Shown piece by piece: positions 3,534 through 28,580 of a DNA stretch of 43,781 bases. The number at the start of each line of letters is the position of its first letter. Position 1 is the stretch's first letter. The stretch lies in the NCBI GenBank assembly GCA_964532175.1, contig CAZHGP010000005.1:1-43781 (forward strand), in the 5' to 3' direction. A model generated the notes under the pieces. The model ran no database searches, was not told the DNA's origin, and was given only the letters and a program-made list of their open reading frames with translations. Made by a program: the position numbers and the translations under genes. The stretch comes from an uncultured Nitrososphaeria archaeon (lineage in GTDB: Archaea; Thermoproteota; Nitrososphaeria_A; Caldarchaeales; JAVZCJ01).

Positions 3534-3556
3534 ATTCGGTATAGAAGGTAAATAAG

Positions 3557-5434: not shown

Positions 5435-5448
5435 GAGGTGTTAAAAGT

Positions 5449-7951: not shown

Positions 7952-8190
7952 AGTTTATCACAATAATGTCAATTTTTCTTATTTAATGATTTTTAAAGAA
8001 GTTAAAAGAAAGATAAATATAAATTTTTTCAAATTTTATTTTCTTTTTGCCTTTTTAATAATTTTTCTTAAAAGTTGATGTTATGAATATATTCTCTAAT
8101 TTTAATCTTCTAATATTTGGATATATTAAAGGAGATAAGATCTCTTTTTTGGCTAAATCCTTATATTTAAATTTGATTATTTAATTTCTT

Positions 8191-8517
8191 ATGTCATTGG
8201 AAGATAAATTAAAAGACTTTCTTGAAAATGGAAAAGATTGGGAAAGGAGACAAACAACAATTGCAGGGGTATTCCTTTTAAAAATCCCTCAATTAAAAAG
8301 CAAGCCAGCAAATATAGCTGTAGAATTAAATCCAGTAGATGAATATGGAAATCCAACTAAAAGAAGAGGAGTAATATTAAGAAATTTAGAAGAATTAAAA
8401 GAATTTAGAAATTTAATAAATAATGAAAAATTAGAATATCTTTTAAAAGTTTTAGATGATGTTAATCCAAAAGCTATAAAAAGAGCTAGACCAAGTAAAG
8501 AAGCAATAGAGATATGA
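8191..8517 (+). CDS. Conserved archaeal protein, PC4/Sub1-like ssDNA-binding fold suspected
   Basis: VELNPVDEYGNPTKRRGVILRNLEELKEF resembles the PC4 signature; ATGA overlap with the helicase gene. Confidence 0.6.
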   Translation: MSLEDKLKDFLENGKDWERRQTTIAGVFLLKIPQLKSKPANIAVELNPVDEYGNPTKRRGVILRNLEELKEFRNLINNEKLEYLLKVLDDVNPKAIKRARPSKEAIEI

Positions 8518-10682: not shown

Positions 10683-10693
10683 TTTTTTAAATT

Positions 10694-11665: not shown

Positions 11666-11755
11666 TTTAAATACTCACCTCTATTTCCTAATAGTTCATA
11701 GCATTAAAATTATTCACTAAAAAATGCTCACTAATTAGGAAATTCAACCAGTACG

Positions 11756-11810
11756 AACTAATATATAAACTTTTCTCTTTAAAATTATACAAACTAATAT
11801 ATAAACTTTT
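11756..11810 (-). promoter_or_regulatory. Tandemly duplicated BRE-TATA promoter of tfb
   Basis: Exact 19-bp repeat at 11756-11774 and 11792-11810; the minus strand reads AAAAG-TTTATATA-TTAGTT. Confidence 0.75.
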
Positions 11811-11997
11811 TCATAAAAATACTAATATTTTGAAAAAAGTATTATGATAAGATATTTAATTCTTCGATTTTATTAAATTTTATGTTAATATTTTTTTATT
11901 TTTGACAAATTAATATTAAAAATTTTAATTTAAGAAAAATGAGAATATAATTATTTAAAGATAAAGACTTAAATATTCTTAAAAGAATTTTTCTCAT

Positions 11998-13626
11998 ATG
12001 AATGATTCTTCAATGCCGGAACCTTTTTTACGTTCATATCAATTACTAGATAAGCAAACTAAGTTGGAAAACTTATTTAGTATATCATATTGGCTTTGGC
12101 GATTAAACCCATCATCAATATTCCCTATAATGCTAGGTAGTGCTGTTGAAGTTTTAAAAGAATCTATAATAGTTATTACTCTTATATTTTCTTTATCCCA
12201 ACTTGCTGCAACAAACATTCTAAATGAGATTGCAAATGCACTTATAGCTAGTGATTTCTCAACATTATTTTCATTATTTTCTTTAATTATTCCAAAAATT
12301 ATAATTACTTTCATTATAGCAGCATTTACATTTTTTTTAGCTTCTATTATAGCCAGTGGTTTTTTAAATTCTGCAGAATATGGCTCTTATCTTCATTTAT
12401 TAAGAAATGGTACACTTTCAATATCAAATGTGTTAGAAGAAATGAAATTAAAATGGACTAAAATGACTTGGACAGTATTAGTAGTTGAAATTATAAAATA
12501 TGGGCCAATATTTTTAGTGCTTACTTGGATATTTTTTGATATTCTACATTTATCAACTATAGGTTTAGATCAATTAAAGTATCCATCATTTTTTAATAAG
12601 CTCTTTTTATGGGTAGGTTTTATATTAATTGCATTAATTTTCACACTAATTTTTACATTATTAACTCTTTATGCTTATCCTGTAGCTATGAATGGTCTTT
12701 ATGGATTTGCCGCAATAAGGAGAAGTATAATGGTATGTAAAGAGCTTCCTATTGATACATTAGCATACTGTGTTTTTAGAGTATTATCTTTAATATTTAT
12801 AAGCGTTATTTCATTTATAGCAAGCTTACTTGCTATTCAAATTTCATCAATCATAGCACTTATCTTAAGCTTTATTCTAACTCCAATTTTTCATATACTT
12901 AAGACTGCGATTTTCCTTAAATCACAACCTAATTCTATTATTATTTCATATTCTATCAATATTTCATTTTTAAAAGATTTCTTTTCATATATTTTGAAAA
13001 TAGGATTAGAAAAAATTAAGAAAGGATTAAATGAACTCATCATTTTTCTAACTAAACCTAAGAATATTATATTCCATATTTTTTCAATAGTTGCTTTTTC
13101 TTTAGGAGTATTAATTGGAGAATGGATTTCATATTCTGGCATTAGACAAATTTTCTACGCATTAGGATATGTACCAGGAAAAATGAATCCCTTATTTAAA
13201 GCCACGTATGGTTTGCCTTTTCTTGCTCTCGACATATCTTTTCATAATTGGCAAGTTTCACTAGCTACAGCTCTTTCTGGTGTGATATTTATTATTCCAG
13301 TTTTAACAACACTATTTTTTAATGGTTTCATTTTAGGGGTAATTATGGATATTATTCAAAACTTAACTTTACTCATGGCAGCAATACTCCCGCATGGAAT
13401 AATAGAGCTTCCTGCTTTTATAATTTCTGGTTCTGTTGGATTAAGATTAGGGTTTGATTTTCTTAAGGCTTTAAAGCAAGGTAACTTAAGTTCTAACATT
13501 GAATTTCATCAAGCTTTAAGAAGAACAATTTACATAATGCTTGGGTTAATTCCATTGTTCATCATAGCAGGAATTATAGAAACATTCATTACACCGTATA
13601 TAATGCGTGCATATGGTTGGGAATAA
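11998..13626 (+). CDS. Polytopic membrane protein with C-terminal SpoIIM domain
   Basis: ISFHNWQV...FFNGFILG...ILPHGIIELPA...AGIIETFITP; extra N-terminal multi-TM region. Confidence 0.85.
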   Translation: MNDSSMPEPFLRSYQLLDKQTKLENLFSISYWLWRLNPSSIFPIMLGSAVEVLKESIIVITLIFSLSQLAATNILNEIANALIASDFSTLFSLFSLIIPKIIITFIIAAFTFFLASIIASGFLNSAEYGSYLHLLRNGTLSISNVLEEMKLKWTKMTWTVLVVEIIKYGPIFLVLTWIFFDILHLSTIGLDQLKYPSFFNKLFLWVGFILIALIFTLIFTLLTLYAYPVAMNGLYGFAAIRRSIMVCKELPIDTLAYCVFRVLSLIFISVISFIASLLAIQISSIIALILSFILTPIFHILKTAIFLKSQPNSIIISYSINISFLKDFFSYILKIGLEKIKKGLNELIIFLTKPKNIIFHIFSIVAFSLGVLIGEWISYSGIRQIFYALGYVPGKMNPLFKATYGLPFLALDISFHNWQVSLATALSGVIFIIPVLTTLFFNGFILGVIMDIIQNLTLLMAAILPHGIIELPAFIISGSVGLRLGFDFLKALKQGNLSSNIEFHQALRRTIYIMLGLIPLFIIAGIIETFITPYIMRAYGWE

Positions 13627-13700
13627 GAATTTTATTTGAAAAAGTAAATTTAGAAAAATTATATAATATATTTTAAGTTAAAATTTTTTATAAAAAATGG

Positions 13701-14744
13701 GTGGTACAATTGCAAATTAGGATAGCTATTGTAAGATATAAAGGTCTTGAACTTTTTGGTATTTATACTGATGCTATTGAGAAATTGAAAAAATTTGGTG
13801 AAGTCAAAATATTGTATGGTTCAGATAATCCTATAGAGCTTGCAAATCAACTTCTTAATTTTCAAATTGTTATTACTGAAATCTTAAAACCAAAATTCAC
13901 ATCAGAATTCTTTGAAAGAAATAAAGATGTTCAAATGATTTTTGTTAATGGTAGAGGGTATGATAATGTTGATATAAAAGCTGCTGAGGAACATGGAGTG
14001 CTTGTTGCAAGAGTTCCAGGATGGTGTGAAGCTGAAGCTGTAGCAGAGCACACAATAGCTCTTTTGCTTACTGCTCTAAGGAAGCTTAGAGAAGCTGATA
14101 AATGGGTAAAAAATGGAGAATGGTGGAGAAAAGGATATGTTTCTATAGATTTTCTCACTAATAATATAAGAGATTTAACTATAGGAATAATAGGTTTTGG
14201 CTGGATTGGATCAAGAGTTGCTCATATACTTAAAAATGGTTTTAATGCAAAGAAAATCTTAATCTATGATCCTTATATCCCTGAAGAGAAAATAAAAGAA
14301 GCAGGCTTTCATTATATGAATAATTTTAATGATCTTCTACAAAAATCTGATGTAATACTAATTCATGCGGAGCTTACATCAGAAACATATCATATGATTG
14401 GAAAAAGAGAATTTGAGATAATGAAAGATAGAGTTATTATAATTAACACGGCCCGAGGGGCAATTATAGATAATGCTGCACTTATTGAGAATTTAAAACG
14501 TGGAAAAATAGGGTATATTTCTCTTGATGTTATTGAAGATGAACCAATAAATGAAGATCATCCATTGCTTAAATTTAATAATGTTTTCATAACACCTCAT
14601 ATAGCGTATGCAACACGGTATGCAATAAAATGTATGGATTACTCGGCTATTAATGCTGTTAAAAACTTTCTTAAAGGAAAAGAAGTATGGGAAACTATAG
14701 TTAACCCAAAGAAAATAAGAAAAACTTACGAATCATTATCTTAG
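13701..14744 (+). CDS. D-isomer-specific 2-hydroxyacid dehydrogenase
   Basis: GYDNVD, AVAEH, GIIGFGWIG, INTARG, LDVIEDEP, TPHIA. Confidence 0.93.
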   Translation: MVQLQIRIAIVRYKGLELFGIYTDAIEKLKKFGEVKILYGSDNPIELANQLLNFQIVITEILKPKFTSEFFERNKDVQMIFVNGRGYDNVDIKAAEEHGVLVARVPGWCEAEAVAEHTIALLLTALRKLREADKWVKNGEWWRKGYVSIDFLTNNIRDLTIGIIGFGWIGSRVAHILKNGFNAKKILIYDPYIPEEKIKEAGFHYMNNFNDLLQKSDVILIHAELTSETYHMIGKREFEIMKDRVIIINTARGAIIDNAALIENLKRGKIGYISLDVIEDEPINEDHPLLKFNNVFITPHIAYATRYAIKCMDYSAINAVKNFLKGKEVWETIVNPKKIRKTYESLS

Positions 14745-14857
14745 GGATTATTATTTTATGATAATTTCTACTAAGTATTTTTTCTCTTAATTTCAAAAAT
14801 TCTTTTTATATTAATAGTTATCATTGTTTTATAAATTAAGAATTGTATAATTTTATC

Positions 14858-14951
14858 ATGATTAATTTATAATTATTAATCATAAGCTTAAAATAGATAA
14901 TAGAATTTTAAATAAAAATCGAATTTTATGTAATATACATAATCATGATTA
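14858..14951. promoter_or_regulatory. Palindromic TAATCAT-based sites upstream of the P-type ATPase
   Basis: ATGATTAAT-N8-ATTAATCAT (14858-14883) and perfect TAATCATGATTA (14940-14951). Confidence 0.4.
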
Positions 14952-15050
14952 AAAATAATTTATTTTTTATTAATCCTTATATAATAGCTTATAAAAACAG
15001 TGATCTCAACAAAAATATTGGAGCTTAAACCATGAAAATAAAGCCGGGAA

Positions 15051-17831
15051 ATGGAAATGAGCACAAAGATAGCAAAAGAGAATCATACGAAAATCTATAT
15101 GTTATCAACCAAAGAAGTACTCAGGGAACTAAATACTTCAGAAAATGGATTAAGCGAACTAGAAGCAAGAAAACGATTAAAAGAATATGGACCTAATATT
15201 ATAAAAGAATTTAAGAAAAAATCAATAATCATAAGATTTTTTGAACAATTTAAAAGTTTATTTGCAATATTATTACTTATTGCAAGTTTACTTGCTGCTA
15301 TTCTAAATATGATAGAACTTAGTGTAGCCATTATATTAATAGTTATCATTAATGCTATTGTAGGATTATTACAAGAATATAAAGCTGAAAAGCTTATTAA
15401 AGAATTAAAGAAAATTATGCCACTTTACGCAAGAGTATGTAGGGATGGAATAGAAAAGAAAATACAAGCAAGTGAGCTTGTTCCAGGAGACCTTATTATA
15501 TTAGAAGAAGGAGATCGTGTACCTGCTGATGCTCGTTTAATTGAAAGTTTTGGAGTTACTGTTAGTAGTGTAACTTTAACAGGTGAGTCTGCACCTCAAG
15601 CAAAAAGTGCTGAACCATTTTTGGAAGAGAATGTACCTTGGACAGATATACCAAACATCATACTTATGGGAACAACAGTTGTGTCTGGTCATGGTAAAGC
15701 TATAGTATTTTCAACTGGAATGAGGACTAAATTTGGTTCGATTGCTAACCTTGCTCAAACTATTAAAGAAGAGTCGAGCCCTTTACAAAAGGAAATTTCT
15801 AAAACTGCTAAAACAATATCAATAATGGCAATAATAATTGGTACAATATTTTTCATTATTGGGATTCTATTAAAAATTAGTTTACTTGAAGCTTTTTTAT
15901 TTGGAATTGGAATAATGGTAGCATGTGTTCCGGAAGGTTTACAAGCAACAATATCTGTTTCATTAGCAATGAGTATTCGAAGGATGGCGCGTAAAAATGC
16001 TTTAATAAAACGTCTTTCAGCTGTAGAAACATTGGGGTGTGTTACAACAATATGTACAGATAAAACTGGAACAATAACAAAGGGGGAAATGACTGTAACA
16101 AAAATATGGATAAACAATAAAGTTTTGCAAGTTACAGGTATTGGATACGAACCTCGTGGAGACTTTATTTTAAATGGTAAAAGAATATCAATAAATGATT
16201 TGCCAGAATTAAATTTATTATTTGAAGCAGCAACATTTTGCAATAATGCAAAATTAATTCCTCCATCTGATAAAAAGTCTAAATGGGAAGCTATTGGAGA
16301 TCCCACTGAAGTTGCTTTACTTATTGCTTCTCAAAAACTTGATTTTAATATTAATTTAGCTTTAGCAAAAAAACCACGTATTCATATGATACCTTTTGAT
16401 CCAATTAGAAAAATGATGAGCTCAATCCATAATGCAAATGATAAAAAAGTAGTTTATGTTAAAGGAGCACCGATTGAGGTTTTATCTAAATGTAAATATA
16501 TTTTAATTGAAGGACTAAATAAAGAACTTTCATCTTATTATAAAGATAAAATAGTTTCACAAATAAATGAATTTGCAAAGGAAGGATTGAGGGTTCTTGC
16601 TTTTGCATATAAGGAAATACCTCAAGATATTTATGAATATACAATTGAAAATATAGAAAAAGACCTTATTTTTATTGGATTAATGGCAATGTACGATCCT
16701 CCTAGACCAGAAGTTAAAGAAGCTATTGAAAAAGCTAGGAGAGCAGGAATTAAAATAATAATGGTTACTGGAGATCATGAATTAACAGCTAAAACTATAG
16801 CTTTACAAACATCAATAATAAAAGATGATAAATGTAAAGTTTTTACAGGAGCCGACTTAGATAAATTAAGTGATGAAGAATTATTAAAAGAATTAAACAA
16901 TGATGGAGTAGTTTTTGCCAGAATTACTCCAGAACATAAGCTTAGAATAGTAAGGCTTCTTAAAAAGAAAGGTGAAATCGTAGCTGTTACTGGGGATGGA
17001 GTAAATGATGCACCATCATTAAAAGCAGCAGATATAGGGATTGCTATGGGTATTACAGGCACGGATGTAGCAAAGGAGTCAGCTGATATAATATTGCTTG
17101 ATGATAATTTTGCTACAATTGTTAATGCTATTGAAGAAGGTAGAGGTGTATATAGAAACATAAAAAGATTTACCACATACATTCTTTCTTCAAATTGGCC
17201 AGAGTTAATTCCATTTATTGCTTTTGTATTATTTAAAATTCCTCTCGCTCTTACAATTATGCAAATATTAGCTATTGATTTAGGAACAGATGTTTTACCA
17301 GCTTTAGCATTAGGAGTTGAATATCCTAAACCAATTTTAATGTTGCAACCACCAAGAAGCCAGAAAGAAAGGTTATTGGATTTAGGAATGATAGCACGTT
17401 CATTTTTCCTTGGAATAATAGAAGCTTTTGCATGCATGATTAGTGCAATTACAACATGGATATCTGGAGGATGGTATTTTGGGCATTTCTTGAATATGAA
17501 TGATTATTTATATAAAAAAGGCACAACTATGGCTTTTGCAAGTATAGTTACGTCTCAAATTGGTAATGTTTTTGCTTGTAGAACAAGTAGGACATCGATA
17601 TTTAAAGTTGGTTTTCTATCTAATAAATGGATATTTTTTGGTATTCTTGGTGAAATTATTATAACTTTATTTATAATTTATTTTCAACCATTGCAACATA
17701 TATTCAATACTGTTCCATTAAGTTTATATGATTGGCTCTTCTTATTTATATTTTCTCCAGTTATTCTTTTTGCTGAAGAAATAAGAAAATTCTTTGTAAG
17801 ACGCTTAAAGCCTATTGAAATTGAAATGTAA
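15051..17831 (+). CDS. Cation-transporting P-type ATPase (type II)
   Basis: TGES, CVPEGL, DKTGT phosphorylation site, KGA, DPPR, TGD, GDGVND. Confidence 0.95.
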   Translation: MEMSTKIAKENHTKIYMLSTKEVLRELNTSENGLSELEARKRLKEYGPNIIKEFKKKSIIIRFFEQFKSLFAILLLIASLLAAILNMIELSVAIILIVIINAIVGLLQEYKAEKLIKELKKIMPLYARVCRDGIEKKIQASELVPGDLIILEEGDRVPADARLIESFGVTVSSVTLTGESAPQAKSAEPFLEENVPWTDIPNIILMGTTVVSGHGKAIVFSTGMRTKFGSIANLAQTIKEESSPLQKEISKTAKTISIMAIIIGTIFFIIGILLKISLLEAFLFGIGIMVACVPEGLQATISVSLAMSIRRMARKNALIKRLSAVETLGCVTTICTDKTGTITKGEMTVTKIWINNKVLQVTGIGYEPRGDFILNGKRISINDLPELNLLFEAATFCNNAKLIPPSDKKSKWEAIGDPTEVALLIASQKLDFNINLALAKKPRIHMIPFDPIRKMMSSIHNANDKKVVYVKGAPIEVLSKCKYILIEGLNKELSSYYKDKIVSQINEFAKEGLRVLAFAYKEIPQDIYEYTIENIEKDLIFIGLMAMYDPPRPEVKEAIEKARRAGIKIIMVTGDHELTAKTIALQTSIIKDDKCKVFTGADLDKLSDEELLKELNNDGVVFARITPEHKLRIVRLLKKKGEIVAVTGDGVNDAPSLKAADIGIAMGITGTDVAKESADIILLDDNFATIVNAIEEGRGVYRNIKRFTTYILSSNWPELIPFIAFVLFKIPLALTIMQILAIDLGTDVLPALALGVEYPKPILMLQPPRSQKERLLDLGMIARSFFLGIIEAFACMISAITTWISGGWYFGHFLNMNDYLYKKGTTMAFASIVTSQIGNVFACRTSRTSIFKVGFLSNKWIFFGILGEIIITLFIIYFQPLQHIFNTVPLSLYDWLFLFIFSPVILFAEEIRKFFVRRLKPIEIEM

Positions 17832-17840
17832 AAAATAATA

Positions 17841-18356
17841 TTAATAATTCTCTTTAATTCTCTCAATTTTACGTGATAAGATCTCTATAAGTTGCTCTTC
17901 TTCAAGAGCATGTTTCTCATCTTGTGTAAGTTCCTCTGGTAACCATTTTGGCTTAGGTTTATCCTTAAAATATGCTCTTATGGCTCTTCTTAAGGCTCCT
18001 ACAGCAAGTATTCCACAATGATATTTGACAGCTGGGAGTCCTCCAAGCTCATCTGAAATTCTTTTCCAAGAAATTTGCCAAGCTTCTTCTAATGTTTTAT
18101 CTTTAATAATCTCAGTCAGTATGCTTGAAGCAGCTATATTTGCTGCACAACCATAACTTTCAAATGATGCTTTAATTATTTTTTGAGTATTTTTATCTAT
18201 TTTAAGATATATTGCAATCATATCTCCACAAGCTATACTTCCAGCTACAGCTGAAGCATCTGCATCTTCCATTTTACCTAAATTCTTAGGATTTCTAAAA
18301 AGTTCCAAAACTTTAGGATTATATGGTAAAGGAATTCTACTAGACATTTTTCTCAT
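17841..18356 (-). CDS. iscU: IscU/NifU-N Fe-S scaffold
   Basis: FRNPKNLG, ACGD, GCAANIAAS, LGGLPAVKYHC; three conserved Cys. Confidence 0.92.
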   Translation of the reverse strand: MRKMSSRIPLPYNPKVLELFRNPKNLGKMEDADASAVAGSIACGDMIAIYLKIDKNTQKIIKASFESYGCAANIAASSILTEIIKDKTLEEAWQISWKRISDELGGLPAVKYHCGILAVGALRRAIRAYFKDKPKPKWLPEELTQDEKHALEEEQLIEILSRKIERIKENY

Positions 18357-19581
18357 CTCCAGGTTTAATTGGACTAATCGAGCGTATTCTAGATACTACT
18401 TCAGGCATTTTCTCAATCACATATTTTATATCTTCTTCATTATGAAAAGGAGTAACTTTCATTAATAAACTTCCATGCGCTTCTTCATACTTTCTTCCTA
18501 TAGCTAAAAGAACATGGCTTGGCTCTAAAACTCTACTTGTACAAGCACTTCCACTTGAAACATATATTCCATTTAAGCTAAGCTCAACAGTTAATGCTTC
18601 ACCCTCACAATATAGAAAGCTTAAATTAGCATTATCAGATGAACGTTTATTCCCTTTTGGACCATTTAAAAACACATAATCTATTTTTTCAATTATATTT
18701 TTTATAAGCATATCTCTAAGATTAATCATTTTTGAATTATAAAATTCAAAATTAGAATATAAAATTTTAATTGCTTTAGAAAAACCAAATATGGAAGGAA
18801 TATTTTCTAAACTTGGCCAAAGTTTTTGAGTACTAAGTTGTCCATATATTATAGGTTCTAATTTTATTCCTTCTTTTACATAAAGTGCTCCTGCACCTTT
18901 TGGTCCATAAACTTTATGGCTACTGAAAGAAGCCAAATCTACATTCAATTTTCTTAAATCTATTTTAATTTTTCCAAAAGCATCACAAGCATCTGTATGA
19001 ATGAATGCTTCTGGATTTTTATCTTTTACTATATCAATTATTGCTTTTAAATCTTGTATTGTTCCTATTTCATGATTTACAGCTGCTATGCTTACTAAAA
19101 GAGTATCCTTATCAATATTTTTATCTATAAAATCTTTATTTACAAATCCTTCTTTATCTACTGGAATTTTAATAACTTTATATCCATATTTTTGAAGATG
19201 CTCGGCTGGAAAAATCACACTTAAATGCTCTATGCTTGAAACAAGTATTTTATTTCTCTCTTTATAAGATTCTGCTAATCCTAAGATAGCTAAATTATTT
19301 GCTTCAGTACCATTATGAGTATATATTATTTCTTCAGGATTACAATTTAAAACATTAGCTAATATATTACTTGATTCATAAAGTTTCTCGTAAGATTCCC
19401 ATCCAATTTTATGTGTTATAGATGGATGACCATATCCAATATTTTTGTAAGTTTCAATTAAAGCTTCTAAAGCTTCAGGAAATATTAATCCAGAATTTTC
19501 TGAATCAAGGTATACTTCCTTTTTAGGTTTACCATGAGATTCTAAAAGAGATCTTACATCTTTAATTACATCACTTGACAT
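18340..19581 (-). CDS. iscS: Group I cysteine desulfurase (divergent)
   Basis: GTEANN, SSIEH, SSHKVYGPKG (PLP Lys), SSGSACTS (catalytic Cys). Confidence 0.88.
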   Translation of the reverse strand: MSSDVIKDVRSLLESHGKPKKEVYLDSENSGLIFPEALEALIETYKNIGYGHPSITHKIGWESYEKLYESSNILANVLNCNPEEIIYTHNGTEANNLAILGLAESYKERNKILVSSIEHLSVIFPAEHLQKYGYKVIKIPVDKEGFVNKDFIDKNIDKDTLLVSIAAVNHEIGTIQDLKAIIDIVKDKNPEAFIHTDACDAFGKIKIDLRKLNVDLASFSSHKVYGPKGAGALYVKEGIKLEPIIYGQLSTQKLWPSLENIPSIFGFSKAIKILYSNFEFYNSKMINLRDMLIKNIIEKIDYVFLNGPKGNKRSSDNANLSFLYCEGEALTVELSLNGIYVSSGSACTSRVLEPSHVLLAIGRKYEEAHGSLLMKVTPFHNEEDIKYVIEKMPEVVSRIRSISPIKPGDEKNV

Positions 19582-19583
19582 TA

Positions 19584-19823
19584 TTATTTAACCTCCACAT
19601 ATATTTCATATACATCTTCATTTTTATCAATCTTTAAAATATTATGTCCTACATTAGAAGCCCATTCTTTTATATCAGAAGGGGCAGCTGGATCGGTAGC
19701 TAAAAGCTTAATTATTTGACCCGATTCTGCTTTACTAATTGCTTCAACTAATGCTAATAAAGGTCCTGGACAAAACTTAAATCTTGCATCAATTACTAAA
19801 TCTACTTTCATATTTTTATTCAC
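19584..19823 (-). CDS. tusA: TusA/SirA sulfur carrier
   Basis: DARFKFCPGP (CPxP), ATDPAAPSDIKEW. Confidence 0.92.
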   Translation of the reverse strand: MNKNMKVDLVIDARFKFCPGPLLALVEAISKAESGQIIKLLATDPAAPSDIKEWASNVGHNILKIDKNEDVYEIYVEVK

Positions 19824-19833
19824 TTTTTATTTT

Positions 19834-20244
19834 TTAAGAAATAAATAAGTTTATTTCAGAATCTTTAGCTTTAGATAGGAAAGTTGGAGCACCAACTATA
19901 TCATCTACAAAATCTTCAAGATTTTCTTTATTAATTTTAAATAAATCCATAGTAGTTGAACAAGCATAAATTTTAAGTCTACCAGTATTTTTAAAAGATT
20001 TAAGCATACTTTTCCATTCTGGAATTTTACCTAATTCTATCATTTTTATTAAAGATTCTTTATATTCATTATAATCTAAGCTTACATTTTTAGTTTCATG
20101 TCCTTTCTTTAAAGCTAGCAAACCCCAAAAAGTGAAAAATATTTCAGCATTCCATCCTAAGGCAACAGAACTAGTTGCAAGTATTATTGCTGGATAAATT
20201 TTATCTAATCTTTCAGATGCTAGTATGATAGATATTTTAGGCAT
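19834..20244 (-). CDS. DsrE/DsrF/DrsH-like (DsrE2-type) sulfur-relay protein
   Basis: IFFTFWGL, IYACSTTM, VGAPTFL. Confidence 0.88.
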   Translation of the reverse strand: MPKISIILASERLDKIYPAIILATSSVALGWNAEIFFTFWGLLALKKGHETKNVSLDYNEYKESLIKMIELGKIPEWKSMLKSFKNTGRLKIYACSTTMDLFKINKENLEDFVDDIVGAPTFLSKAKDSEINLFIS

Positions 20245-20414: not shown

Positions 20415-21011
20415 TTATTTCTTAGCTTCTTTTCTACGTATAGTCGATGCTACTAAACAAAGCAATCCTGAAAATAGAGCCATCCAAAATTTAAATGTAA
20501 ATTGAGATAATGTTTTGATTTTTAAAGAAGCATCAATATACAATATTGGATAAAGGTTTATAGTTAGATATTGGCTTGAATATGGCATTAATGCATCATT
20601 TAAGTTTGGTAAAACTTCAGCTACAATAGGTATGTATTGTTGTGCTGAAGATATTATTATAGTAATGCCAATCAAGATTAAAACAATAAATAATACTGGC
20701 ATTATAAATGGTCTGAGATTAAATAATCGTTGTGACCATGTTTTTTTATATAACAATGAGCCAGCAATTATAGTGATTGAACCAATTATAGCAAGCAATC
20801 TTTCGCATAAAAACAATCCAATTATTAAAGGTGGTGGTTTAAGGAACTCCAAACCTAAAATCTCGAACTTAAAGTCAAATGGAGAAAATCCAATGTATAA
20901 AAATGGTTTAGAAACTTCACCACCAATTAATTCCCACCAAGCACCACCAGCTATAGATATTATTAGGAAAATAATTCCACTAATTAGATATAAAATTCTA
21001 AATTTCTCCAT
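20415..21011 (-). CDS. Hypothetical membrane protein (about 4 TM)
   Basis: Hydrophobic segments; co-oriented with and 6 bp from the upstream gene. Confidence 0.7.
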   Translation of the reverse strand: MEKFRILYLISGIIFLIISIAGGAWWELIGGEVSKPFLYIGFSPFDFKFEILGLEFLKPPPLIIGLFLCERLLAIIGSITIIAGSLLYKKTWSQRLFNLRPFIMPVLFIVLILIGITIIISSAQQYIPIVAEVLPNLNDALMPYSSQYLTINLYPILYIDASLKIKTLSQFTFKFWMALFSGLLCLVASTIRRKEAKK

Positions 21012-21017: not shown

Positions 21018-21530
21018 TCACTTCGGAAATCTAAAATTGCTTATCGAGAATTCGAATGGAATTTCAATTGAATTTAAGATCAAAGTGACATTCCCTGAAA
21101 GATTAACAGGAGATCCTTTTTCAAGAATTATCATAAGATCTTCGATAGAGCCTTTCTCTAATAAGAACAAGATATGTACGCTCTCCTTCTCACCAGATTC
21201 TAAAATAAATGGAGCTTGAAGAATTATTTTTCCATCAATATTTGATGAAGGAACAGTTATCCTTGCATACAATTTATTTAAACCAACCTTATTATTCCCA
21301 CTATTAAACAATTCAACATTCAATAAGTATCTTCCATCAGTAGTAGTATAATTTATTGAGATTATACGAATTGAGCTTGGGTCAAAGGATATAAATTCTT
21401 GAGGAGGGTTTAAAACTGGCATAATGAAATTCGATAGAGATCCTGAAGTGAAATAGTAGAATGTTAGAGGTGCTATAATTGCTATAATTGTGATAAGTCT
21501 AGGTACCCATACTATGAGTCTTTCGTTCAT
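21018..21530 (-). CDS. Membrane-anchored beta-sandwich protein (LEA-2/WHy-like)
   Basis: One N-terminal TM, then LNVELFNSGN...LESGEKESVHI beta pattern. Confidence 0.6.
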   Translation of the reverse strand: MNERLIVWVPRLITIIAIIAPLTFYYFTSGSLSNFIMPVLNPPQEFISFDPSSIRIISINYTTTDGRYLLNVELFNSGNNKVGLNKLYARITVPSSNIDGKIILQAPFILESGEKESVHILFLLEKGSIEDLMIILEKGSPVNLSGNVTLILNSIEIPFEFSISNFRFPK

Positions 21531-21817: not shown

Positions 21818-22660
21818 CTATGTTTCTTGAATTATTTTTCTCCAATAATCATTTAATTCATATATTTTCTCATCATCCCCAACAAAGCCTTCTTCAGTCA
21901 TTTTAAGCTTTACTACTTTAGGGGTAGGCATAGCTATATGTTTTTCTAAAATTGCAAGACGTTTATAATCTTTCAAAATTAATAATCTTAATATTGTTTT
22001 ACTTATGTATTCAAGATGACTGCCACCAATTACTTCAAATCTTTTTGCATCAAAACCCAATTCTAAATCTAATAACTCTTGTTTTTTTAACATTTTGTTT
22101 CTTTCTCTATCTAAAAATGTTTTGTATGCAGCACTTTTAGTCCATGAAACAAGAATAACAGGCACATCATACTTTATAGCCAAACTCATCAACTTTCCAG
22201 CTTGATATGCAAGCTTACCTTGTAATTCTCTAGCTTCACTTGCTAAAAAAGAAGTTTTTGTAGCCAAGAGCTGTTTATGATATTGATTTACAAAACTATC
22301 AACTATAAAAGCTAATGGTTGAAGCCCCTCATTCTTTATTGTTTCTTCCCATTTATGAATAATAGTTTTATGTTGTTCACTTAAACTATCTACACGAGTT
22401 ATATACATACGATCTAAAATTGATTGATCAATATTAAGAGCTTTAGCCATTTGTAATAATCGAGATTCATGAAAACCTTGTTCTGTGTCTAAATAGAAAA
22501 ATTCCCCCTCACAATTCTTAGATAAATTGAGAATTGTTTGAAGTATTATTGTTGTTTTTCCACTCCCAGGATCTCCATAAATAAGATTTATTGCGCTTGC
22601 TAAAAATCCACCACCCATTAATTTATCTAAAATTTTGCAACCTGTAGAAATATATCTCAT
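21818..22660 (-). CDS. RadB/RadA-paralog RecA-family ATPase
   Basis: ISTGCKILDKLMGGG, Walker A GDPGSGKT, YLDTE, Walker B FIVDS, GGSHLEY, LEKH; lacks the RadA N-terminal domain. Confidence 0.88.
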   Translation of the reverse strand: MRYISTGCKILDKLMGGGFLASAINLIYGDPGSGKTTIILQTILNLSKNCEGEFFYLDTEQGFHESRLLQMAKALNIDQSILDRMYITRVDSLSEQHKTIIHKWEETIKNEGLQPLAFIVDSFVNQYHKQLLATKTSFLASEARELQGKLAYQAGKLMSLAIKYDVPVILVSWTKSAAYKTFLDRERNKMLKKQELLDLELGFDAKRFEVIGGSHLEYISKTILRLLILKDYKRLAILEKHIAMPTPKVVKLKMTEEGFVGDDEKIYELNDYWRKIIQET

Positions 22661-24741
22661 TTTCTTTTCCTCCTTAAAATACTTAATAAAACATTTTTTG
22701 CAATTTTTAATGCCCTTTCAGCTTCTTTTTCCCCTATGCTTAAATCTGCTTTTTCAGCTTTATTTTTTATTTCTTCTAACCATTCAACATCTTCTAACTC
22801 CATTGGTTTTAGGCCTTCAATGCATAAAGTTTCATATAATGCTTTAAATTTTTTCCATCTAGTTTTTTCCGGATCTGAAATTAATAATATCATTGCATGC
22901 CTAATCAAATTGTAACATAGAATAATCGATTGACACCATTCTTGATGTGAAAATTTCTTCTCTGCTTCAACTAATTTTTTGACAATTTTCTCATTAATTT
23001 TTAAATAAATTTCTTCTTCTTTAACATCTTCTTTCTTTTTTACAAATTTTCTTTCTTCCCATTCATCAATTGCAAACAACCCTTTCTCGGTTATTTCTAA
23101 TTTTTCTTCATTAATTGAAGATTGTTTTATATATTGTTTATTAATAAGTTCTTTGATTAATTCTTTTATATCATTTAATTCATATTTGTCTGAAAGATAT
23201 GCTTGAATTGTTGCTATATTTATATTTTTTAATTGATATATAAGCTTCATAATTTTATACGCTAATTCATCTTTATTAAAGAATTCTTTTTTAAGAAATG
23301 TAACATTTTCTCCTATTTCTTCTTCAAATATGTCTTCTTTACTTATATCTATATTAAAATCTGTTATTGGTGTAAGCATTAAGAAAGTTTTCATGCCTTC
23401 ATGCGTCATTACTTTTACTATACTTTCTTGAGGTGAAAGTTTTAGTATAAAATTTTCTCCCCCTCTTCCTAATGCAAATACTCTAGATACTTCATCTGCA
23501 ATGTATGGGTCTTCAATCGTCGTTATTATTAAATTTGGAGTTATACTATAAGCGTAGTTTGCTATCCATGTTGCAGAAGTATGCAATAATAAACTAATGT
23601 TTTTTGAAGCTTCTTTAAGCATATACATTAATCTTTCCATTACAGGTCTATAGTCATACGGTAAAAGATGTATTTGAGGTAAAAGATTTTGCAATTCATC
23701 TATAACCATAAGAATCTTTTCCCTTTCTTTTCTTAAAACTTGGTACAATATACCTATAAATAATATTAAAAGGAAAGTTTTTTGTTCTCTATCTATTCCA
23801 CCAACTCTTAAACATATTATTTCCCCTTTTTTTGGTAAAAAGCTTAGAATATTTTTTCCCTCATCAGAAAAAATTTTTGTTAATAAAAGTTTTTTAATAT
23901 CTGCTTTTAAAATATCTGCTCTCCTTTTTTCAAAAAATCTATTTAAACCATCACTCCATATATTCACTTGATCAACTCTTAATATATTTTCATATTCGTA
24001 TTGATTATAAAAGAAATCTGCTAATAAACTTGCTTCTTCAATATCCAATGTGCATGCAACAGAAATAGCCATTGCTAAAATATTTGTCCAAATTTTTAAA
24101 GGCAATGGTTTTGCATCCATTGGATTAATTAAAGTATCAATACCAATATTATAAACTTTGATTGAAGCAATATTCTTAGGAACTCCAATAATATTAGATG
24201 AATCAAAAATGATTATTCCAATTCTCTTCATAGCAGCTTCTTTAATTATTTTACGCATAATATTCAAACCATAAGATCCAAAAATTGTTATACCTCTTTC
24301 AAGATTTTCAAAAGTAATTCCTGTTTTTGATAAGTATCCAAAAAAAGATTTGCCAACCCATCTATATCCTAAAAATAAATCTGCTTTAACTTTATTATTA
24401 AAAGAGAAATTATTCAATTCTAAACTATCTTTAATAAATTTATTAATTATTTGCATTCTATTTTTTGAAAATAAGCTAGATATGAAAAGAGCTATTTTAA
24501 ATGAAAAGATAAATGGTAATTTTAAAAAATTTGCTATACTTTTTCTAATTCTTTTTGATAAAAGTGATAAAATTGCTATTATTGGTAATAAAAAAATTGC
24601 AATTGTTATAAAAGGAATAAATAATATAAAAATAAAAATCATTAAAAATATTGTAGTAAAAGGTAACATTTTCTTTATGAAATTTATACTTTCTTCATCC
24701 AACATTATATCAAATTTTTCTTTCGATAAACTCTTTTTCAT
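22657..24741 (-). CDS. Membrane-anchored degenerate HerA/VirB4-like ATPase fused to winged-helix and HEPN-like domains
   Basis: N-terminal TMs; LERGITIFGSYG (broken Walker A), IIIFD, INPM, MVIDELQNLLP (Walker B); wH ending EITEKG; helical tail EKEAERALKIAKNVL. Confidence 0.65.
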   Translation of the reverse strand: MKKSLSKEKFDIMLDEESINFIKKMLPFTTIFLMIFIFILFIPFITIAIFLLPIIAILSLLSKRIRKSIANFLKLPFIFSFKIALFISSLFSKNRMQIINKFIKDSLELNNFSFNNKVKADLFLGYRWVGKSFFGYLSKTGITFENLERGITIFGSYGLNIMRKIIKEAAMKRIGIIIFDSSNIIGVPKNIASIKVYNIGIDTLINPMDAKPLPLKIWTNILAMAISVACTLDIEEASLLADFFYNQYEYENILRVDQVNIWSDGLNRFFEKRRADILKADIKKLLLTKIFSDEGKNILSFLPKKGEIICLRVGGIDREQKTFLLILFIGILYQVLRKEREKILMVIDELQNLLPQIHLLPYDYRPVMERLMYMLKEASKNISLLLHTSATWIANYAYSITPNLIITTIEDPYIADEVSRVFALGRGGENFILKLSPQESIVKVMTHEGMKTFLMLTPITDFNIDISKEDIFEEEIGENVTFLKKEFFNKDELAYKIMKLIYQLKNINIATIQAYLSDKYELNDIKELIKELINKQYIKQSSINEEKLEITEKGLFAIDEWEERKFVKKKEDVKEEEIYLKINEKIVKKLVEAEKKFSHQEWCQSIILCYNLIRHAMILLISDPEKTRWKKFKALYETLCIEGLKPMELEDVEWLEEIKNKAEKADLSIGEKEAERALKIAKNVLLSILRRKRK

Positions 24742-24874
24742 TAATTTTTAATTAATATTTCTAAAATTTATTCATATCGTAAAGCATTTTTTTAAAAAAT
24801 AGCTTAACGTTCCTTAAAAATTGTTAAAAATAGAATATTTTTAATTAAATTATCTTAATTTTTCTTAACAATAT

Positions 24875-25327
24875 TTAACTCATCTTAAATTTACCTTTTA
24901 ACCATAAAGCAATTATCCATAATGGAAATGCGATGATAAGTCCACCTATTATTCTTAAAGGCATACTTTTCTCTATAGCACTATAAATTGTATAAAAAAA
25001 TATTATTATTCCTATAAATATAAGAGTGTATACTATTGTTTTTTCTAAAATATTTCTTATCTCAATTTTATGCTTAATTTCAATACTTTTTATTTCTTCA
25101 TGCTTTTCTTCAGGAATTTTTGATAAACAAAAAACAACTTTATTCTCAATTCTCTTTTTTACAATAACCCCTTTTGAAAGTAATTTATTTATTCTTACAT
25201 AAATTGAAGGTTTTGAGACATTTAAAGCTGAACTTAATTCCGCTGCACTCATGGGTTTATTTTCTAAAAGTTTAATTATTTTTACTTCTAATTCGTCAAT
25301 TATTTTATTTTCTTTTACTTCATTCAT
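24875..25327 (-). CDS. Winged-HTH protein with two C-terminal TM helices
   Basis: IIKLLENKPMSAAELSSALNVSKPSIYVRINKLLSKGVI, followed by two hydrophobic helices. Confidence 0.8.
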   Translation of the reverse strand: MNEVKENKIIDELEVKIIKLLENKPMSAAELSSALNVSKPSIYVRINKLLSKGVIVKKRIENKVVFCLSKIPEEKHEEIKSIEIKHKIEIRNILEKTIVYTLIFIGIIIFFYTIYSAIEKSMPLRIIGGLIIAFPLWIIALWLKGKFKMS

Positions 25328-25816: not shown

Positions 25817-27172
25817 ATGAAATATCCAAATATTAAAGTTCCACCTCCAGGACCTATTGCTAAAGAAATTTTAAAAAGAGATGAAGAAGTAATTTCTCAA
25901 TCTTTTACAAGATATTATCCACTTGTAGTAAAATCTGGAAAAGGAAGTATAGTAGAAGATGTTGATGGAAATCAATATATAGATTTTAATTCTGGAATAC
26001 TTTGTTCTAATGTGGGGCATAGTCATCCATACGTGATTGAAAGGATTAAAAAACAAATAGAAAAATTTCTAAATTATTCATTAACAGATTTTTATTTTGA
26101 AAATGCTGTAACACTTGCTGAAGAACTTTGTAAAATAACTCCAGGTTCTTTCAAAAAGAGAGTTTATTTTGGAAATAGTGGAACCGAAGCAATTGAAGCT
26201 GCTATAAAAATGGCAAGATGGCATACACGTAAACCATATTTCATAGCTTTTATTAATAGTTTTCATGGAAGGACCATAGGAGCTTTAAGTTTAACTGCAA
26301 GTAAACCTGTTCAAAGGAAATATTTTTCTCCACTTATGCCAAATGTAGTTCATGTTCCTTTCTCTTATTGTTATAGGTGCGCATTCAAACAACAATATCC
26401 TGAATGCAATTTATGGTGTGTTGATTATATAAAAGAATATGTACTAGAAAAATATGTTCCACCAGAGGAAGTTGCTGCAATAGTTTTTGAACCTATTCAA
26501 GGGGAAGGTGGATACATATTTCCACCAGATGATTATTTTATAAAGTTAAAGAAATTAGCTGATGAATATGATATATTGCTTATAGATGATGAAATACAAG
26601 CTGGAATGGGTAGAACTGGAAAATGGTTTGCAATAGAACACTATAATATTTCACCAGACATTATTTGTATTGCAAAATCTTTAGCTTCTGGATTACCATT
26701 AGGTGCTACTGTAGCAGAAGAGTCTATAATGGATTGGGAAGTTGGGAGTCATGCAACAACTTTTGGAGGAAATCCTGTTTCTTGTGAAGCAGCTTTAGCA
26801 ACAATTTCAGTTGTAAAGAATGAAAATCTTTTAGAACGCGCTACTAAACTTGGAAGAAATGTTTTAAAAAGGCTTAAAGAAATGGAAGAAAAATATGAAT
26901 TAATTGGTGATGTGCGTGGAAAAGGGTTAATGATAGGTGTTGAGATAGTAGTTGATAAAAAAACTAAAAAGCCGGGTAGAAAAGAAGTTAAAGAAATTAT
27001 GATGAGATGTTTTAAACAAGGATTAGCAATAATTAGTTGCGGTATTTCTACTTTTAGAATAGCACCTCCACTTAATATAGAAGAAGAATATCTTGAAATA
27101 GGCCTTAATATATTTGAAGATGTTATTAAAGAGTATGAAAATGAATTAAAAATAAAGAATAAGATTACTTAA
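25817..27172 (+). CDS. Class III PLP aminotransferase (GabT/ArgD-like)
   Basis: DVDGNQYIDF, NSGTEAIE, FHGRT, EPIQGEGG, DEIQAGMGRTG, AKSLASG, TTFGGNP. Confidence 0.93.
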   Translation: MKYPNIKVPPPGPIAKEILKRDEEVISQSFTRYYPLVVKSGKGSIVEDVDGNQYIDFNSGILCSNVGHSHPYVIERIKKQIEKFLNYSLTDFYFENAVTLAEELCKITPGSFKKRVYFGNSGTEAIEAAIKMARWHTRKPYFIAFINSFHGRTIGALSLTASKPVQRKYFSPLMPNVVHVPFSYCYRCAFKQQYPECNLWCVDYIKEYVLEKYVPPEEVAAIVFEPIQGEGGYIFPPDDYFIKLKKLADEYDILLIDDEIQAGMGRTGKWFAIEHYNISPDIICIAKSLASGLPLGATVAEESIMDWEVGSHATTFGGNPVSCEAALATISVVKNENLLERATKLGRNVLKRLKEMEEKYELIGDVRGKGLMIGVEIVVDKKTKKPGRKEVKEIMMRCFKQGLAIISCGISTFRIAPPLNIEEEYLEIGLNIFEDVIKEYENELKIKNKIT

Positions 27173-28580
27173 TTACTTCAATCACACTATCTGAAGTAAC
27201 TTCTATTTCAAAATCTTTAAATCTCTTTTTTATATTAACCCATTTAATTTTTATTTTCTCTCCTATATTTATTTGATTTATTTTTAAAGCATTATCACGC
27301 CAAGCAATACCACTAATTATTTTCTCATTTCCTGAAATCCAGAAATAAATTTTTTCAACTAATCCATATTTTGTTTCAACAAGCGCTAATGGAGACTTTG
27401 ATTTTAAAAAACCATATATAATGATATCATTTTCTTCTTTAGTAATATTATCTGGAGTATATTCATTTGCTTTATAATATGGAAGATCTTCCATATCTTT
27501 TCTAAGAATTAAATAATCTTTCTCTTTCTCAATAATAATTTCTTCCCTATTACCTTTAATATTCTTTATTCCTCTTTTTATAAAAATGATATCATCTTTA
27601 TTAATATCTAAATTTTTTGTTAAAAAACATTTAATTCTTATAATTTTATTTCCATCATAACCAAGAATATTCTTAATATTCATTCCATGATCAATTATTT
27701 CAACAATCCTTAATTTTAAATTATTAACTATTTCATATTTTTCTTCTTTTATTTCCTCTATTTTATTTTTAGAATCGATTTTCATTATAAATGTATTATT
27801 GGTTGTATGCACTTCAGATTTTTTCATTTTTACTTCAAATAAAACTACTTCATCATTTAATTTGATATCATTGAATATATCTATTTTATCTCTCCATGCA
27901 ATCAATTTTGTCTCATAAGAATCATCCATTATAATTGCCTCTCTTAAATTTACCACTTCATTTTTTATATTAACAGTTCTTAATGGTTCAATAGATTTAA
28001 TTGTACATTTTATATCGAAAATTCCATCTTTATCTATAACTTCTTTAAGTGGAAGAACATGATATAATATATCTGGTTGCTCATATTCTCCTTCCAATTT
28101 TTCTATTTTTCCATTTTTTCCTATATTTATTTCTAATCTATCAAATCTTTGTTTTACATACCCACCTTCTATTTTAATAATATCTCCAGGCTTAAGATTT
28201 AATTTCTCTACATTTAAAGCAATTTCATCCCATAAAATTAAATTAATTTTTCCTGTTTTATCTCCAATTTTTCCAAAAATATATGAATGTTGACCAATTT
28301 TTCTTAAAGGAGTTATAAAAAGCAATCTTCCAATAATTGCAACATTTTTTAATCCAGAAACTAAATCTATTATTCTTGTTGTTAAAGTTTCTTCTTCAAT
28401 TTTTTCAATATTATATTCTGGAAAAATATTTAATTCTTCAGCTAGAATAAGTGCTGCTCCAAGTTTATTAAGAAAACGGCTTTCACGAATTTTTTCTTCT
28501 ATTTTTTTCTCTATTTCTTCTCTTGTTAAATCTTTCCTCTTATTAATTATTAAAGAAATGATTTCCTCATAATTTTTCAT
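27165..28580 (-). CDS. rpa: Replication protein A (multi-OB-fold ssDNA-binding protein)
   Basis: N-terminal AALILAEEL helix; repeated OB folds (GDKTGKINLILWD, DDSYETKLIAWRD, SGIAWRD). Confidence 0.8.
   Translation of the reverse strand: MKNYEEIISLIINKRKDLTREEIEKKIEEKIRESRFLNKLGAALILAEELNIFPEYNIEKIEEETLTTRIIDLVSGLKNVAIIGRLLFITPLRKIGQHSYIFGKIGDKTGKINLILWDEIALNVEKLNLKPGDIIKIEGGYVKQRFDRLEINIGKNGKIEKLEGEYEQPDILYHVLPLKEVIDKDGIFDIKCTIKSIEPLRTVNIKNEVVNLREAIIMDDSYETKLIAWRDKIDIFNDIKLNDEVVLFEVKMKKSEVHTTNNTFIMKIDSKNKIEEIKEEKYEIVNNLKLRIVEIIDHGMNIKNILGYDGNKIIRIKCFLTKNLDINKDDIIFIKRGIKNIKGNREEIIIEKEKDYLILRKDMEDLPYYKANEYTPDNITKEENDIIIYGFLKSKSPLALVETKYGLVEKIYFWISGNEKIISGIAWRDNALKINQINIGEKIKIKWVNIKKRFKDFEIEVTSDSVIEVIK

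Follow-up and report, generated by a model that had tools for sequence, protein, structure and literature searches.

A contig of an uncultured archaeon of the order Caldarchaeales (GenBank assembly GCA_964532175.1, contig CAZHGP010000005.1) raises the question of what a membrane protein built like the HerA and FtsK ATPases, and apparently without their catalytic site, could do beside a recombinase-like ATPase. The window, meaning the whole stretch of 43,781 nucleotides that was analysed, encodes a 694-amino-acid (aa) protein with N-terminal transmembrane (TM) helices and a degenerate HerA/FtsK-type core, followed by a 280-aa ATPase of the RecA family that resembles RadB; the stop codon of the first open reading frame (ORF) and the start codon of the second share the sequence ATGA. 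The reading favoured here, at a probability of roughly 0.55, is that the membrane-anchored dead HerA/FtsK derivative is a scaffold and obligate partner of the RadB-like ATPase and holds a recombination mediator at the membrane. A preliminary description of this DNA, made from the sequence letters, had proposed such a scaffold as part of a three-gene system and had drawn an analogy with the Ced DNA-import system. The pseudo-ATPase, its membrane helices and its pairing with the RadB-like gene stood up to the present analysis; the three-gene composition, and the Ced analogy as applied to this genome, found no support.

Domain architecture of the 694-aa protein

No family of Pfam or NCBIfam was matched by the 694-aa protein at cut-off, and the DUF87 model gave no match. 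A profile was built from an alignment of ten family members (A1), and hhalign was used to compare this profile with six genuine HerA-type ATPases obtained from the same genome searches, each of them positive for Pfam DUF87 and carrying GxxGxGK[ST]. Residues 133-443 of the query were aligned over 307 columns (98.4%, E 6.6e-15), and by this comparison the core is homologous to HerA/FtsK-type ATPases. At the P-loop 'ITIFGSY---GLN' lies opposite 'VIAQTGAGKSYT' of the template, with a deletion of three residues. 'MVIDELQ' stands opposite 'VVIEEAH' at Walker B; at the ExRK site 'KEASK' (residue 376) stands opposite 'AEGRK', the arginine being lost, and at the TQ sensor 'LLLHTSAT' (HTS 387) opposite 'LILVTQRPS', the glutamine being lost. 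The anatomy first read from the letters (TM helices, a HerA-like core, Walker B kept, and Walker A, arginine finger and TQ motif lost) was confirmed by these alignments, and the HerA/FtsK relationship of the core, on which the proposal had been staked beforehand, held in the profile comparison.

Within A1 the Walker B motif varies (VIDD, VIHE, LIDE, VFDS, VFDG, VLED), with the aspartate mostly kept. It is followed directly by a family-specific motif, LLPYDxR, in which L360, D363 and R365 are invariant and P361 and Y362 nearly so. Hydrophobic stretches were located at residues 21-66 and 69-91 using Kyte-Doolittle windows, and a hydrophobic N-terminus is conserved in every full-length relative of the alignment. 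Those language-model neighbours in the Atlas that bear names were all DUF87 clusters (0.84-0.88), which was taken as a lead only. The A1 profile and phmmer returned nothing significant from the PDB, the best matches being a pentatricopeptide repeat (PPR) artefact, eS19 (E 0.34) and AF0298 (E 0.6), and an Atlas search with residues 470-694 gave no usable match.

The C-terminal end appears to comprise two further domains, both of them suggested in the preliminary description. The HEPN-like bundle gained support: the A1 profile retrieved stand-alone proteins of about 120 aa encoded elsewhere, the three of these that were scanned are Pfam HEPN proteins (1.5e-29, 1.8e-8 and 4e-7), and residues 585-686 of A1 aligned to them by hhalign at 95.2% (E 2.8e-8). 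The Pfam HEPN cut-off (22 bits) was passed by the relative P0012 with 25.8 bits, while P0009 scored 17.2 bits. Unlike the minimal HEPN/MNT-type proteins (PF05168), with stand-alone Pfam-HEPN examples of which its last 100 or so residues align, the window copy is fused to a large protein, is under Pfam detection and has no Rx4-6H motif. R-x(4-6)-H is absent from residues 565-694, and no conserved R, H or any other polar residue was found in the HEPN part of A1. The winged helix was carried over as the most weakly assigned domain of the protein; it matched Penicillinase_R at E 0.021 and eS19 at E 0.34, MarR_2 was matched in the relative P0011 at E 0.0024, and the segment aligns to a winged-helix-like tail in the soluble sister family described below.

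Loss of the P-loop and selection

The 694-aa protein is rare. A word-indexed search of 5.8 billion proteins returned 8 matches only, all 87-100% identical, and an HMMER scan of 1.84 billion cluster representatives gave 7 at E <= 0.001 (the protein itself, one at 35% identity and a few at 22-26%). Homologues carry the source labels Nitrososphaerota, Candidatus Caldarchaeum and Bathyarchaeia. Among 41 related genomes the single sequence matched 8, three from its own genus and, weakly, five from three other families of the same order. The public name is 'hypothetical protein' for all the named members listed except P0012, a 'HEPN domain-containing protein'.

The P-loop GxxxxGK[ST] is missing at the aligned site in all ten rows of A1, which span two archaeal classes. 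Reading frames are intact in five genus-level copies of the gene, and the pairwise ratio of nonsynonymous to synonymous substitution rates (dN/dS) among genus-level copies was 0.13-0.23, against 0.035-0.07 for the RadB-like gene and 0.04-0.16 for the neighbouring Alba gene. Since the P-loop is lost in all relatives and purifying selection acts on the gene, the 694-aa protein is, as judged from sequence, an old pseudo-ATPase and not a decaying copy. The concern that orthologues might keep an intact Walker A was thereby answered, the motif being missing also from all 20 evaluated proteins of the RadA-linked sister family.

One further string, GYRWVGKS at residues 125-132 (24346-24369), fits [AG]x4GK[ST]. 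It lies before the aligned core, occurs in the window genus only and is missing from the 35%-identical homologue and from all other A1 rows. It was read as a chance match and is kept as a caveat.

The RadB-like ATPase

The 280-aa protein has an intact Walker A (GDPGSGKT, at residue 29) and Walker B (FIVDS), which, together with the ATGA overlap, agrees with the first account of it as a RecA-family ATPase. Pfam Rad51 (PF08423) was matched at 4.5e-15 over model positions 7-172 of 244, and the best NCBIfam model was TIGR02237 radB with 104 bits, under its cut-off of 172.4. When aligned with RadA the protein shows no helix-hairpin-helix (HhH) domain, a longer insert in the L2 region and an added C-terminal tail. 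A profile of the RadB-like subfamily was compared with solved structures, and the best single-domain match was RadB of T. kodakarensis (2cvf, E 3.9e-32), RadA being matched at 3.5e-20. In a tree of 21 RecA-family rows the 13 RadB-like sequences were split from 7 RadA sequences with support of 100/99; the other RecA paralogue of the window genome (242 aa, on another contig) fell outside the RadB-like group on a long branch, its placement being unsure. Public names of RadB-like proteins are generic ('ATPase domain-containing protein', 'RecA/RadA recombinase'), and PADLOC gave a weak mad8 match at the P-loop only.

RadB has been described as euryarchaeal (PMC4080772) and as a recombination mediator (PMC5480776). 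The 280-aa protein is like RadB in its missing HhH, its intact Walker motifs and its best structure and model; it is unlike RadB in scoring under the equivalog cut-off, in the L2 insert and the tail, in coming from Thermoproteota and in being accompanied by a dead HerA-like gene. The crenarchaeal, KaiC-like aRadC proteins (RadC1 and RadC2) are likewise short RecA-family ATPases without a dsDNA-binding domain and have been implicated in the regulation of RadA (PMC4080772). No aRadC structure appeared among the PDB matches listed for the RadB-like profile (best 60 of 98).

Conservation of the gene pair

A profile of the RadB-like subfamily (A7) was run over 401 sampled genomes of the phylum. Matches at E <= 1e-25 were found in 35 genomes, 32 of them near full length (E <= 4.2e-69) and spread over eight families (f1, f4, f8, f10, f17, f26, f34 and f39); genomes within a genus are not independent, and the count is best taken per family. 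A HerA-like ORF with a winged helix and no Walker A directly adjoins the RadB-like gene in 29 of the 32; the remaining three have it on the same strand at a distance of about 5 kb. The linkage, proposed from a single locus, is thus conserved far beyond the genus.

The arrangement varies in detail. In all 17 genomes of family f10 a HerA-like ORF of 407-457 aa ends within about 0.5 kb upstream of the RadB-like gene on the same strand, as judged from coordinates; in one of these, L108, the ORFs were read, and the HerA-like ORF was found to have neither Walker A nor Walker B and to have a winged-helix-like tail, with the RadB-like start just after it. A related ORF of about 400 aa overlaps the RadB-like start in all five genomes of f17. 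In G202 an active 670-aa HerA-like protein is followed by a 513-aa dead form and then by the RadB-like gene, and in G248 and G044 TM-anchored dead forms (535 and 698 aa) overlap the RadB-like gene. The pair is adjacent in reversed order at a contig end in G112, and adjacent in all three genomes of the window genus. The three genomes with the 5-kb spacing (G006, G015 and G024, genus g5) have the RadB-like gene downstream of the homologue. When the window RadB-like protein was used as the query against the 41 relatives, ordinary RadA was returned at E of about 1e-11 to 1e-15 nearly everywhere, and near-full-length matches of 1e-30 to 1e-34 only from these three genomes; by BLASTP the g5 protein is 32% identical to that of the window (1e-39).

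Metagenome contigs of the P0009 lineage (GC 0.56) encode a 709-aa homologue, 35% identical, overlapping a 303-aa RadB-like protein, 58% identical. These loci conserve the pair alone; AlaRS is encoded upstream of it, and the ORF on its downstream side, which is convergent, is amidohydrolase-like. Membrane anchoring recurs among the RadB-like-linked forms (G248, G044 and G082). In G082 (L113, G082:C44, 2976-5254, minus strand) a 355-aa protein with N-terminal TM helices directly precedes a soluble 404-aa dead HerA-like protein and then the RadB-like gene, as if the TM-fused architecture had been split in two. A pseudo-ATPase homologue (P0023) and a RadB-like protein (P0085) of Bathyarchaeia are both recorded on an 8,943-base contig, which hints at linkage in that group as well. 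Literature searches brought up no account of a HerA-like protein lacking Walker A and tied to radA or radB; supplementary tables of the Ced and Ted studies might list such loci.

Soluble relatives linked to RadA

The A1 profile also matched soluble proteins of 437-522 aa with no Walker A and the same winged-helix-like tail. A profile of these sister proteins (A5) was aligned with A1 by hhalign over 428 columns (99.7%, E 4.6e-27). Against solved structures A5 matched HerA (9x1l at 1.6e-4, 4d2i at 4.4e-4, 8xau at 9e-4 and 8wiv at 1.6e-3) and the packaging ATPase B204 of Sulfolobus turreted icosahedral virus (7.9e-3).

The sister genes lie in an operon that encodes, in order, a protein of about 205-265 aa, the dead HerA-like protein, a protein of about 105-134 aa and a full-length RadA (HhH and Rad51, E 1e-80). 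Full-length RadA stands two genes downstream in 21 of the 30 loci found with A5, and these 21 come from families f12, f27, f29, f37, f45, f46, f47 and f53. One of the remaining loci has a RadB-like gene, one is at a contig edge and seven are partial matches without RadA nearby; among those seven, the ORF selected carries a Walker A pattern in four loci and is merely a short one in the other three. The pattern [AG]x4GK[STA] was found in 0 of 20 RadA-linked sister proteins checked (20 of the 21 loci, L088 being left out). The operon can be seen in Candidatus Methanosuratincola petrocarbonis (CP130488.1, L092, 2387-5618) and in L056 (6692-10796), L058 (5018-8921) and L059 (7131-10361). Neither of its small proteins has a Pfam family; the one of about 105-134 aa is conserved over several families (BLASTP down to 3e-4). 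Where the listed sister proteins bear a name (Thermoprotei, Verstraetearchaeota/Methanomethylicia and Culexarchaeum) it is 'hypothetical protein'. The 694-aa protein is best placed in the membrane and HEPN branch of a broad family of dead HerA-like, winged-helix proteins whose partner is either RadA or a RadB-like paralogue, a family that went unnoticed in the preliminary description.

Proposed function

The pseudo-ATPase can be set beside two known ATPases. With HerA of the HerA-NurA system (DUF87/PF01935) it shares the homologous core, with strand and P-loop site, Walker B, ExRK and TQ in the same order, and apparently a functional neighbourhood, that of homologous recombination. It is unlike HerA in having no P-loop, ExRK arginine or TQ glutamine, in falling under the DUF87 threshold, in its N-terminal TM helices and C-terminal winged helix and HEPN, and in its partner, which belongs to the RecA family and is not NurA, Mre11 or Rad50. 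The apparent layout of an N-terminal membrane anchor, an FtsK/HerA core and a C-terminal winged-helix-like segment resembles that of FtsK/SpoIIIE, in which the C-terminal winged helix is the gamma domain; the 694-aa protein differs in its dead motor, in the lack of any Pfam match to FtsK_SpoIIIE or the gamma domain, in the extra HEPN and in its restriction to an archaeal lineage.

Under the scaffold reading the HerA/FtsK-type core would still oligomerise as HerA and FtsK proteins do, presumably as a ring, the winged helix would contact DNA or a partner, and the HEPN bundle would be non-catalytic. The two proteins would be made together from the overlapping stop and start codons, the RadB-like ATPase would dock on the pseudo-ATPase and supply the nucleotide-dependent step, and the pseudo-ATPase would keep this mediator of recombination, probably along with DNA, in place on the cytoplasmic side of the membrane. 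The pair would then be a membrane branch of an older soluble module, made up of a dead HerA-like protein with a winged helix and of RadA, that may serve in the loading or control of the recombinase. In relatives whose cluster also encodes Hel308, a ParB-N protein and two active HerA/VirB4-like ATPases anchored by TM helices, DNA crossing the membrane could be handed to recombination.

A wider and distinctly more tentative proposal is that HerA-derived pseudo-ATPases with a winged helix form an ancient, unrecognised class of recombinase partners in Thermoproteota. The soluble form might load RadA or mediate its loading, linking end processing of the HerA-NurA type to the formation of RadA filaments, and the membrane form might couple membrane-held or membrane-crossing DNA to recombination. 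The loading and control of archaeal RadA have been presented as unsettled, with RadB and aRadC as merely candidate mediators (PMC4080772). Dead HerA-like genes beside RadA in eight families or beside a RadB-like paralogue in eight, 16 families in total, supply a concrete and testable candidate partner. Through its membrane branch the family may physically connect recombination with the handling of DNA at the membrane, a link of the kind sought in the Ced and Ted work (PMC9905601). Under this wider proposal an FtsK-shaped protein would have been converted from a pump to a docking ring. The 694-aa protein is also a clean example of a pumping ATPase turned pseudo-enzyme and retained under selection. 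The superfamilies themselves are known; what is new here is a testable and undescribed tie of a dead HerA-like family to an archaeal recombinase.

Alternative explanations

A role in DNA transfer is brought up by the Caldarchaeum-type relatives, whose homologues have about four hydrophobic stretches. In G006, G015 and G024 the homologue is part of one long co-directional cluster (L009, G006:C2:428000-446000, minus strand 2136-17897; L014 of G015, same order). The cluster begins with an uncharacterised protein that also has 694 aa, a 105-aa protein with two TM helices and a 936-aa VirB4/TraG-like ATPase with TM helices. It continues with a 172-aa protein bearing a signal or anchor sequence, a 771-aa HerA/TrwB-like ATPase with about four TM helices, a 114-aa protein with two TM helices and the dead homologue, and ends with a Zn-ribbon protein, Hel308, a ParB-N protein and the RadB-like protein. 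L009 holds three TM-anchored FtsK/HerA-type paralogues (two active, one dead) and two RecA-like ORFs; its small proteins with two TM helices are repeated and have an acidic N-terminus and an RR tail. A similar order is present in G017 (VirB4-like, 172-aa protein, HerA-like, 92-aa TM protein, 454-aa homologue), and the contig of G031 is too short to judge.

From these loci it can be argued that the pair belongs, as a remnant or as a functioning accessory, to an apparatus for DNA transfer, mobile or domesticated, of the conjugation, Ced or Ted type. The dead ATPase would then be a structural paralogue among FtsK/HerA/VirB4 motors, and the RadB-like protein would act on the DNA being transferred, to protect, pair or establish it, and not in chromosomal repair. 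The g5 cluster and G017 place the homologue beside VirB4-like and HerA-like ATPases, and the patchy distribution and mobile-element-like flanks fit as well. The Ced and Ted systems are reported to use HerA/VirB4-type membrane-associated ATPases to power DNA import, Ted loci being reported beside HerA-like and Rad50 genes (PMC9905601), and CedD is reported as a second VirB4/VirD4-like ATPase (PMC11868833, PMC11823120). The 694-aa protein is like CedB, CedD and TedB in being a membrane protein of the HerA/VirB4 type tied to DNA exchange or recombination (PMC9905601, PMC11868833, PMC11823120), and its relatives adjoin two active ATPases of this kind; it is unlike them in having no canonical P-loop to use and no VirB4-type match in its own genome.

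We regard this transfer role as unlikely for the window. Housekeeping genes (Alba, IscS/NifU, AlaRS) surround the pair in the window genus and the P0009 lineage, where no transfer ATPase adjoins it, both genes are under strong purifying selection, and the soluble sister family is tied to RadA and not to transfer genes. The window genome (G000) gave no AAA_10/VirB4 match and no homologue of the 936-aa VirB4-like ATPase, an absence that is unproven at 97% completeness in 104 contigs; it has four DUF87-type ATPases elsewhere. The Zn-ribbon protein of the cluster (218 aa) was also searched for in G000 and not found, and ParB-N gave one weak match (E 0.0057). No CedA- or TedA-like channel or pilin was identified here, with no family-model search made for them, and tblastn of the 694-aa protein against 72,556 plasmid and 50,697 phage records returned nothing. 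With no VirB4-type match, the analogy with Ced is not supported for the window genome, in which DNA import is unproven.

Several observations weigh against the scaffold reading. The 32 genomes with a RadB-like gene reduce to eight families. G017, which is 96% complete, has its homologue beside VirB4-like and HerA-like ATPases and no RadB-like copy at E <= 1e-25, so the pseudo-ATPase can exist without its RadB-like partner. The cluster occurs patchily, in 3 of 12 genomes of g5, 1 of 8 of g3 and 1 of 7 of g4. Bordering it in G006 are ORFans together with genes for an XPD-like helicase, an N6-methylase, a primase-large-subunit-like protein and a fragment of an MCM-like AAA protein. It has the look of an apparatus acquired recently or of an integrated element, not of core repair, and may be an integrated DNA-transfer element of Caldarchaeales. 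Because the window genome has no VirB4-type ATPase in view, any transport role there would be without a visible motor nearby. The retained Walker B (VIDE) and the string GYRWVGKS also leave a small chance of non-canonical nucleotide binding.

The same gene-pair evidence could point to a dead ATPase that acts as a negative regulator, sequestering the RadB-like protein (in the soluble form, RadA) until a signal releases it, as an anti-recombinase or checkpoint. The title of McRobbie et al. (2009) reports antirecombinase activity for some archaeal RadA paralogues, and the genus-specific membrane gene upstream of the pair, with its winged helix-turn-helix (wHTH), would suit a signal-responsive unit. 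Sequence cannot tell loading from sequestration; the winged helix and HerA-type core suggest contact with DNA over storage, and no signal-sensing domain was found in the Pfam and NCBIfam scans. Regulation of this kind is considered improbable.

Poorer still are the prospects of a module for antiviral defence or abortive infection, in which foreign DNA would trigger a HerA-like platform with a HEPN effector. HerA-like platforms and HEPN domains do recur in defence systems, and the active ATPases of the relatives match HerA, DndH and mad8 of PADLOC, as their Hel308 matches HamB. The 694-aa protein and its G006 homologue each match 0 PADLOC 2.0 families, however, the HEPN has neither Rx4-6H nor a conserved polar residue, the partner that recurs throughout is an ATPase of the recombinase family, and housekeeping genes make up the surroundings.

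Decay of a functionless HerA-type copy, which the combined loss of Walker A, the ExRK arginine and the TQ sensor might suggest, is ruled out for practical purposes by the family-wide loss across two classes, the intact frames and the dN/dS of 0.13-0.23. A chance ORF was rejected on the conservation of the family in A1 and on dN/dS.

Accompanying genes and surroundings

The coordinates of the features are collected in Table 1. The gaps between genes are 133 nt from the 150-aa to the 694-aa ORF, 287 nt from the 280-aa to the 170-aa ORF and 6 nt from the 170-aa to the 198-aa ORF.

Table 1. Positions in the window of the gene pair, its accompanying genes and the domains and motifs of the 694-aa protein
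Feature	Position	Strand	Remarks
wHTH/TM protein, 150 aa	24875-25327	minus	From the ORF list
Pseudo-ATPase, 694 aa	22657-24741	minus	TM helices, degenerate HerA/FtsK-type core, winged helix, non-catalytic HEPN
N-terminal hydrophobic region, residues 21-91	24469-24681	minus	2-3 TM helices (Kyte-Doolittle)
HerA/FtsK-type core without P-loop, about residues 133-448	23398-24345	minus	hhalign
Degenerate Walker A site GSYGLN, residues 155-160	24262-24279	minus	3-residue deletion relative to GxxGxGK[ST]
Walker B VIDE, residues 346-349	23695-23706	minus	Kept
Family-specific motif LLPYDYR, residues 359-365	23647-23667	minus	A1 columns
Winged-helix-like domain, about residues 483-563	23053-23295	minus	
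HEPN (PF05168-type) without Rx4-6H, about residues 585-686	22684-22989	minus	
RadB-like RecA-family ATPase, 280 aa	21818-22660	minus	
170-aa protein	21018-21530	minus	One N-terminal TM helix or signal anchor; no family; membership of the module doubtful
198-aa polytopic membrane protein	20415-21011	minus	No family; membership of the module doubtful

The 150-aa protein has an N-terminal winged HTH (Pfam TrmB 2.6e-8, HTH_24 8.9e-7) and two hydrophobic helices within residues 92-145 by a Kyte-Doolittle scan, and is probably a membrane-bound one-component regulator. Its best NCBIfam match was the Sta1 family (7.2e-8), followed by ArnR (0.0029), with Lrs14 matched too, all under cut-off; PADLOC gave generic HTH matches alone. 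Sta1 of Sulfolobus has been reported as an activator of the radA paralogue sso0777 (PMC2175319). The likeness to Sta1 is restricted to the HTH and was noted as a lead only.

Homologues of the wHTH, 170-aa and 198-aa proteins were confined to low-GC loci of the window genus, 4 of the 14 loci compared (L002, L003, L021 and L022). Pairwise dN/dS of genus-level copies was 0.20-0.38 for the wHTH gene and 0.22-0.35 for the 170-aa gene. The wHTH gene, counted at first as one of three co-oriented members, is therefore not supported as part of the conserved unit, and the two downstream membrane genes, whose membership had been left open, are doubtful members, the 170-aa gene because of its genus-only occurrence and the 287-nt gap. 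Of the three to five genes first considered, two remain as a conserved core, and this core belongs to a family on the scale of the phylum.

The GC content of the window is very low (0.21-0.35), and most of its genes are archaeal housekeeping genes (TFB, P-type ATPase, NifU/IscS, DsrE, Alba, NrdD and HflX). Directly downstream of the two membrane genes lies a sulfur-relay and Fe-S group (17841-20244, minus strand) made up of a NifU-like protein, an IscS-like protein of 413 aa, a TusA-like ORF of 79 aa and a DsrE-like protein. On the other side, two genes from the module and past Alba and an aminotransferase-like gene, a 471-aa protein (27165-28580, minus strand) shows OB-fold matches (tRNA_anti-codon 4.5e-8 and, weakly, CDC24_OB3) and may be an RPA-like single-stranded DNA-binding protein.

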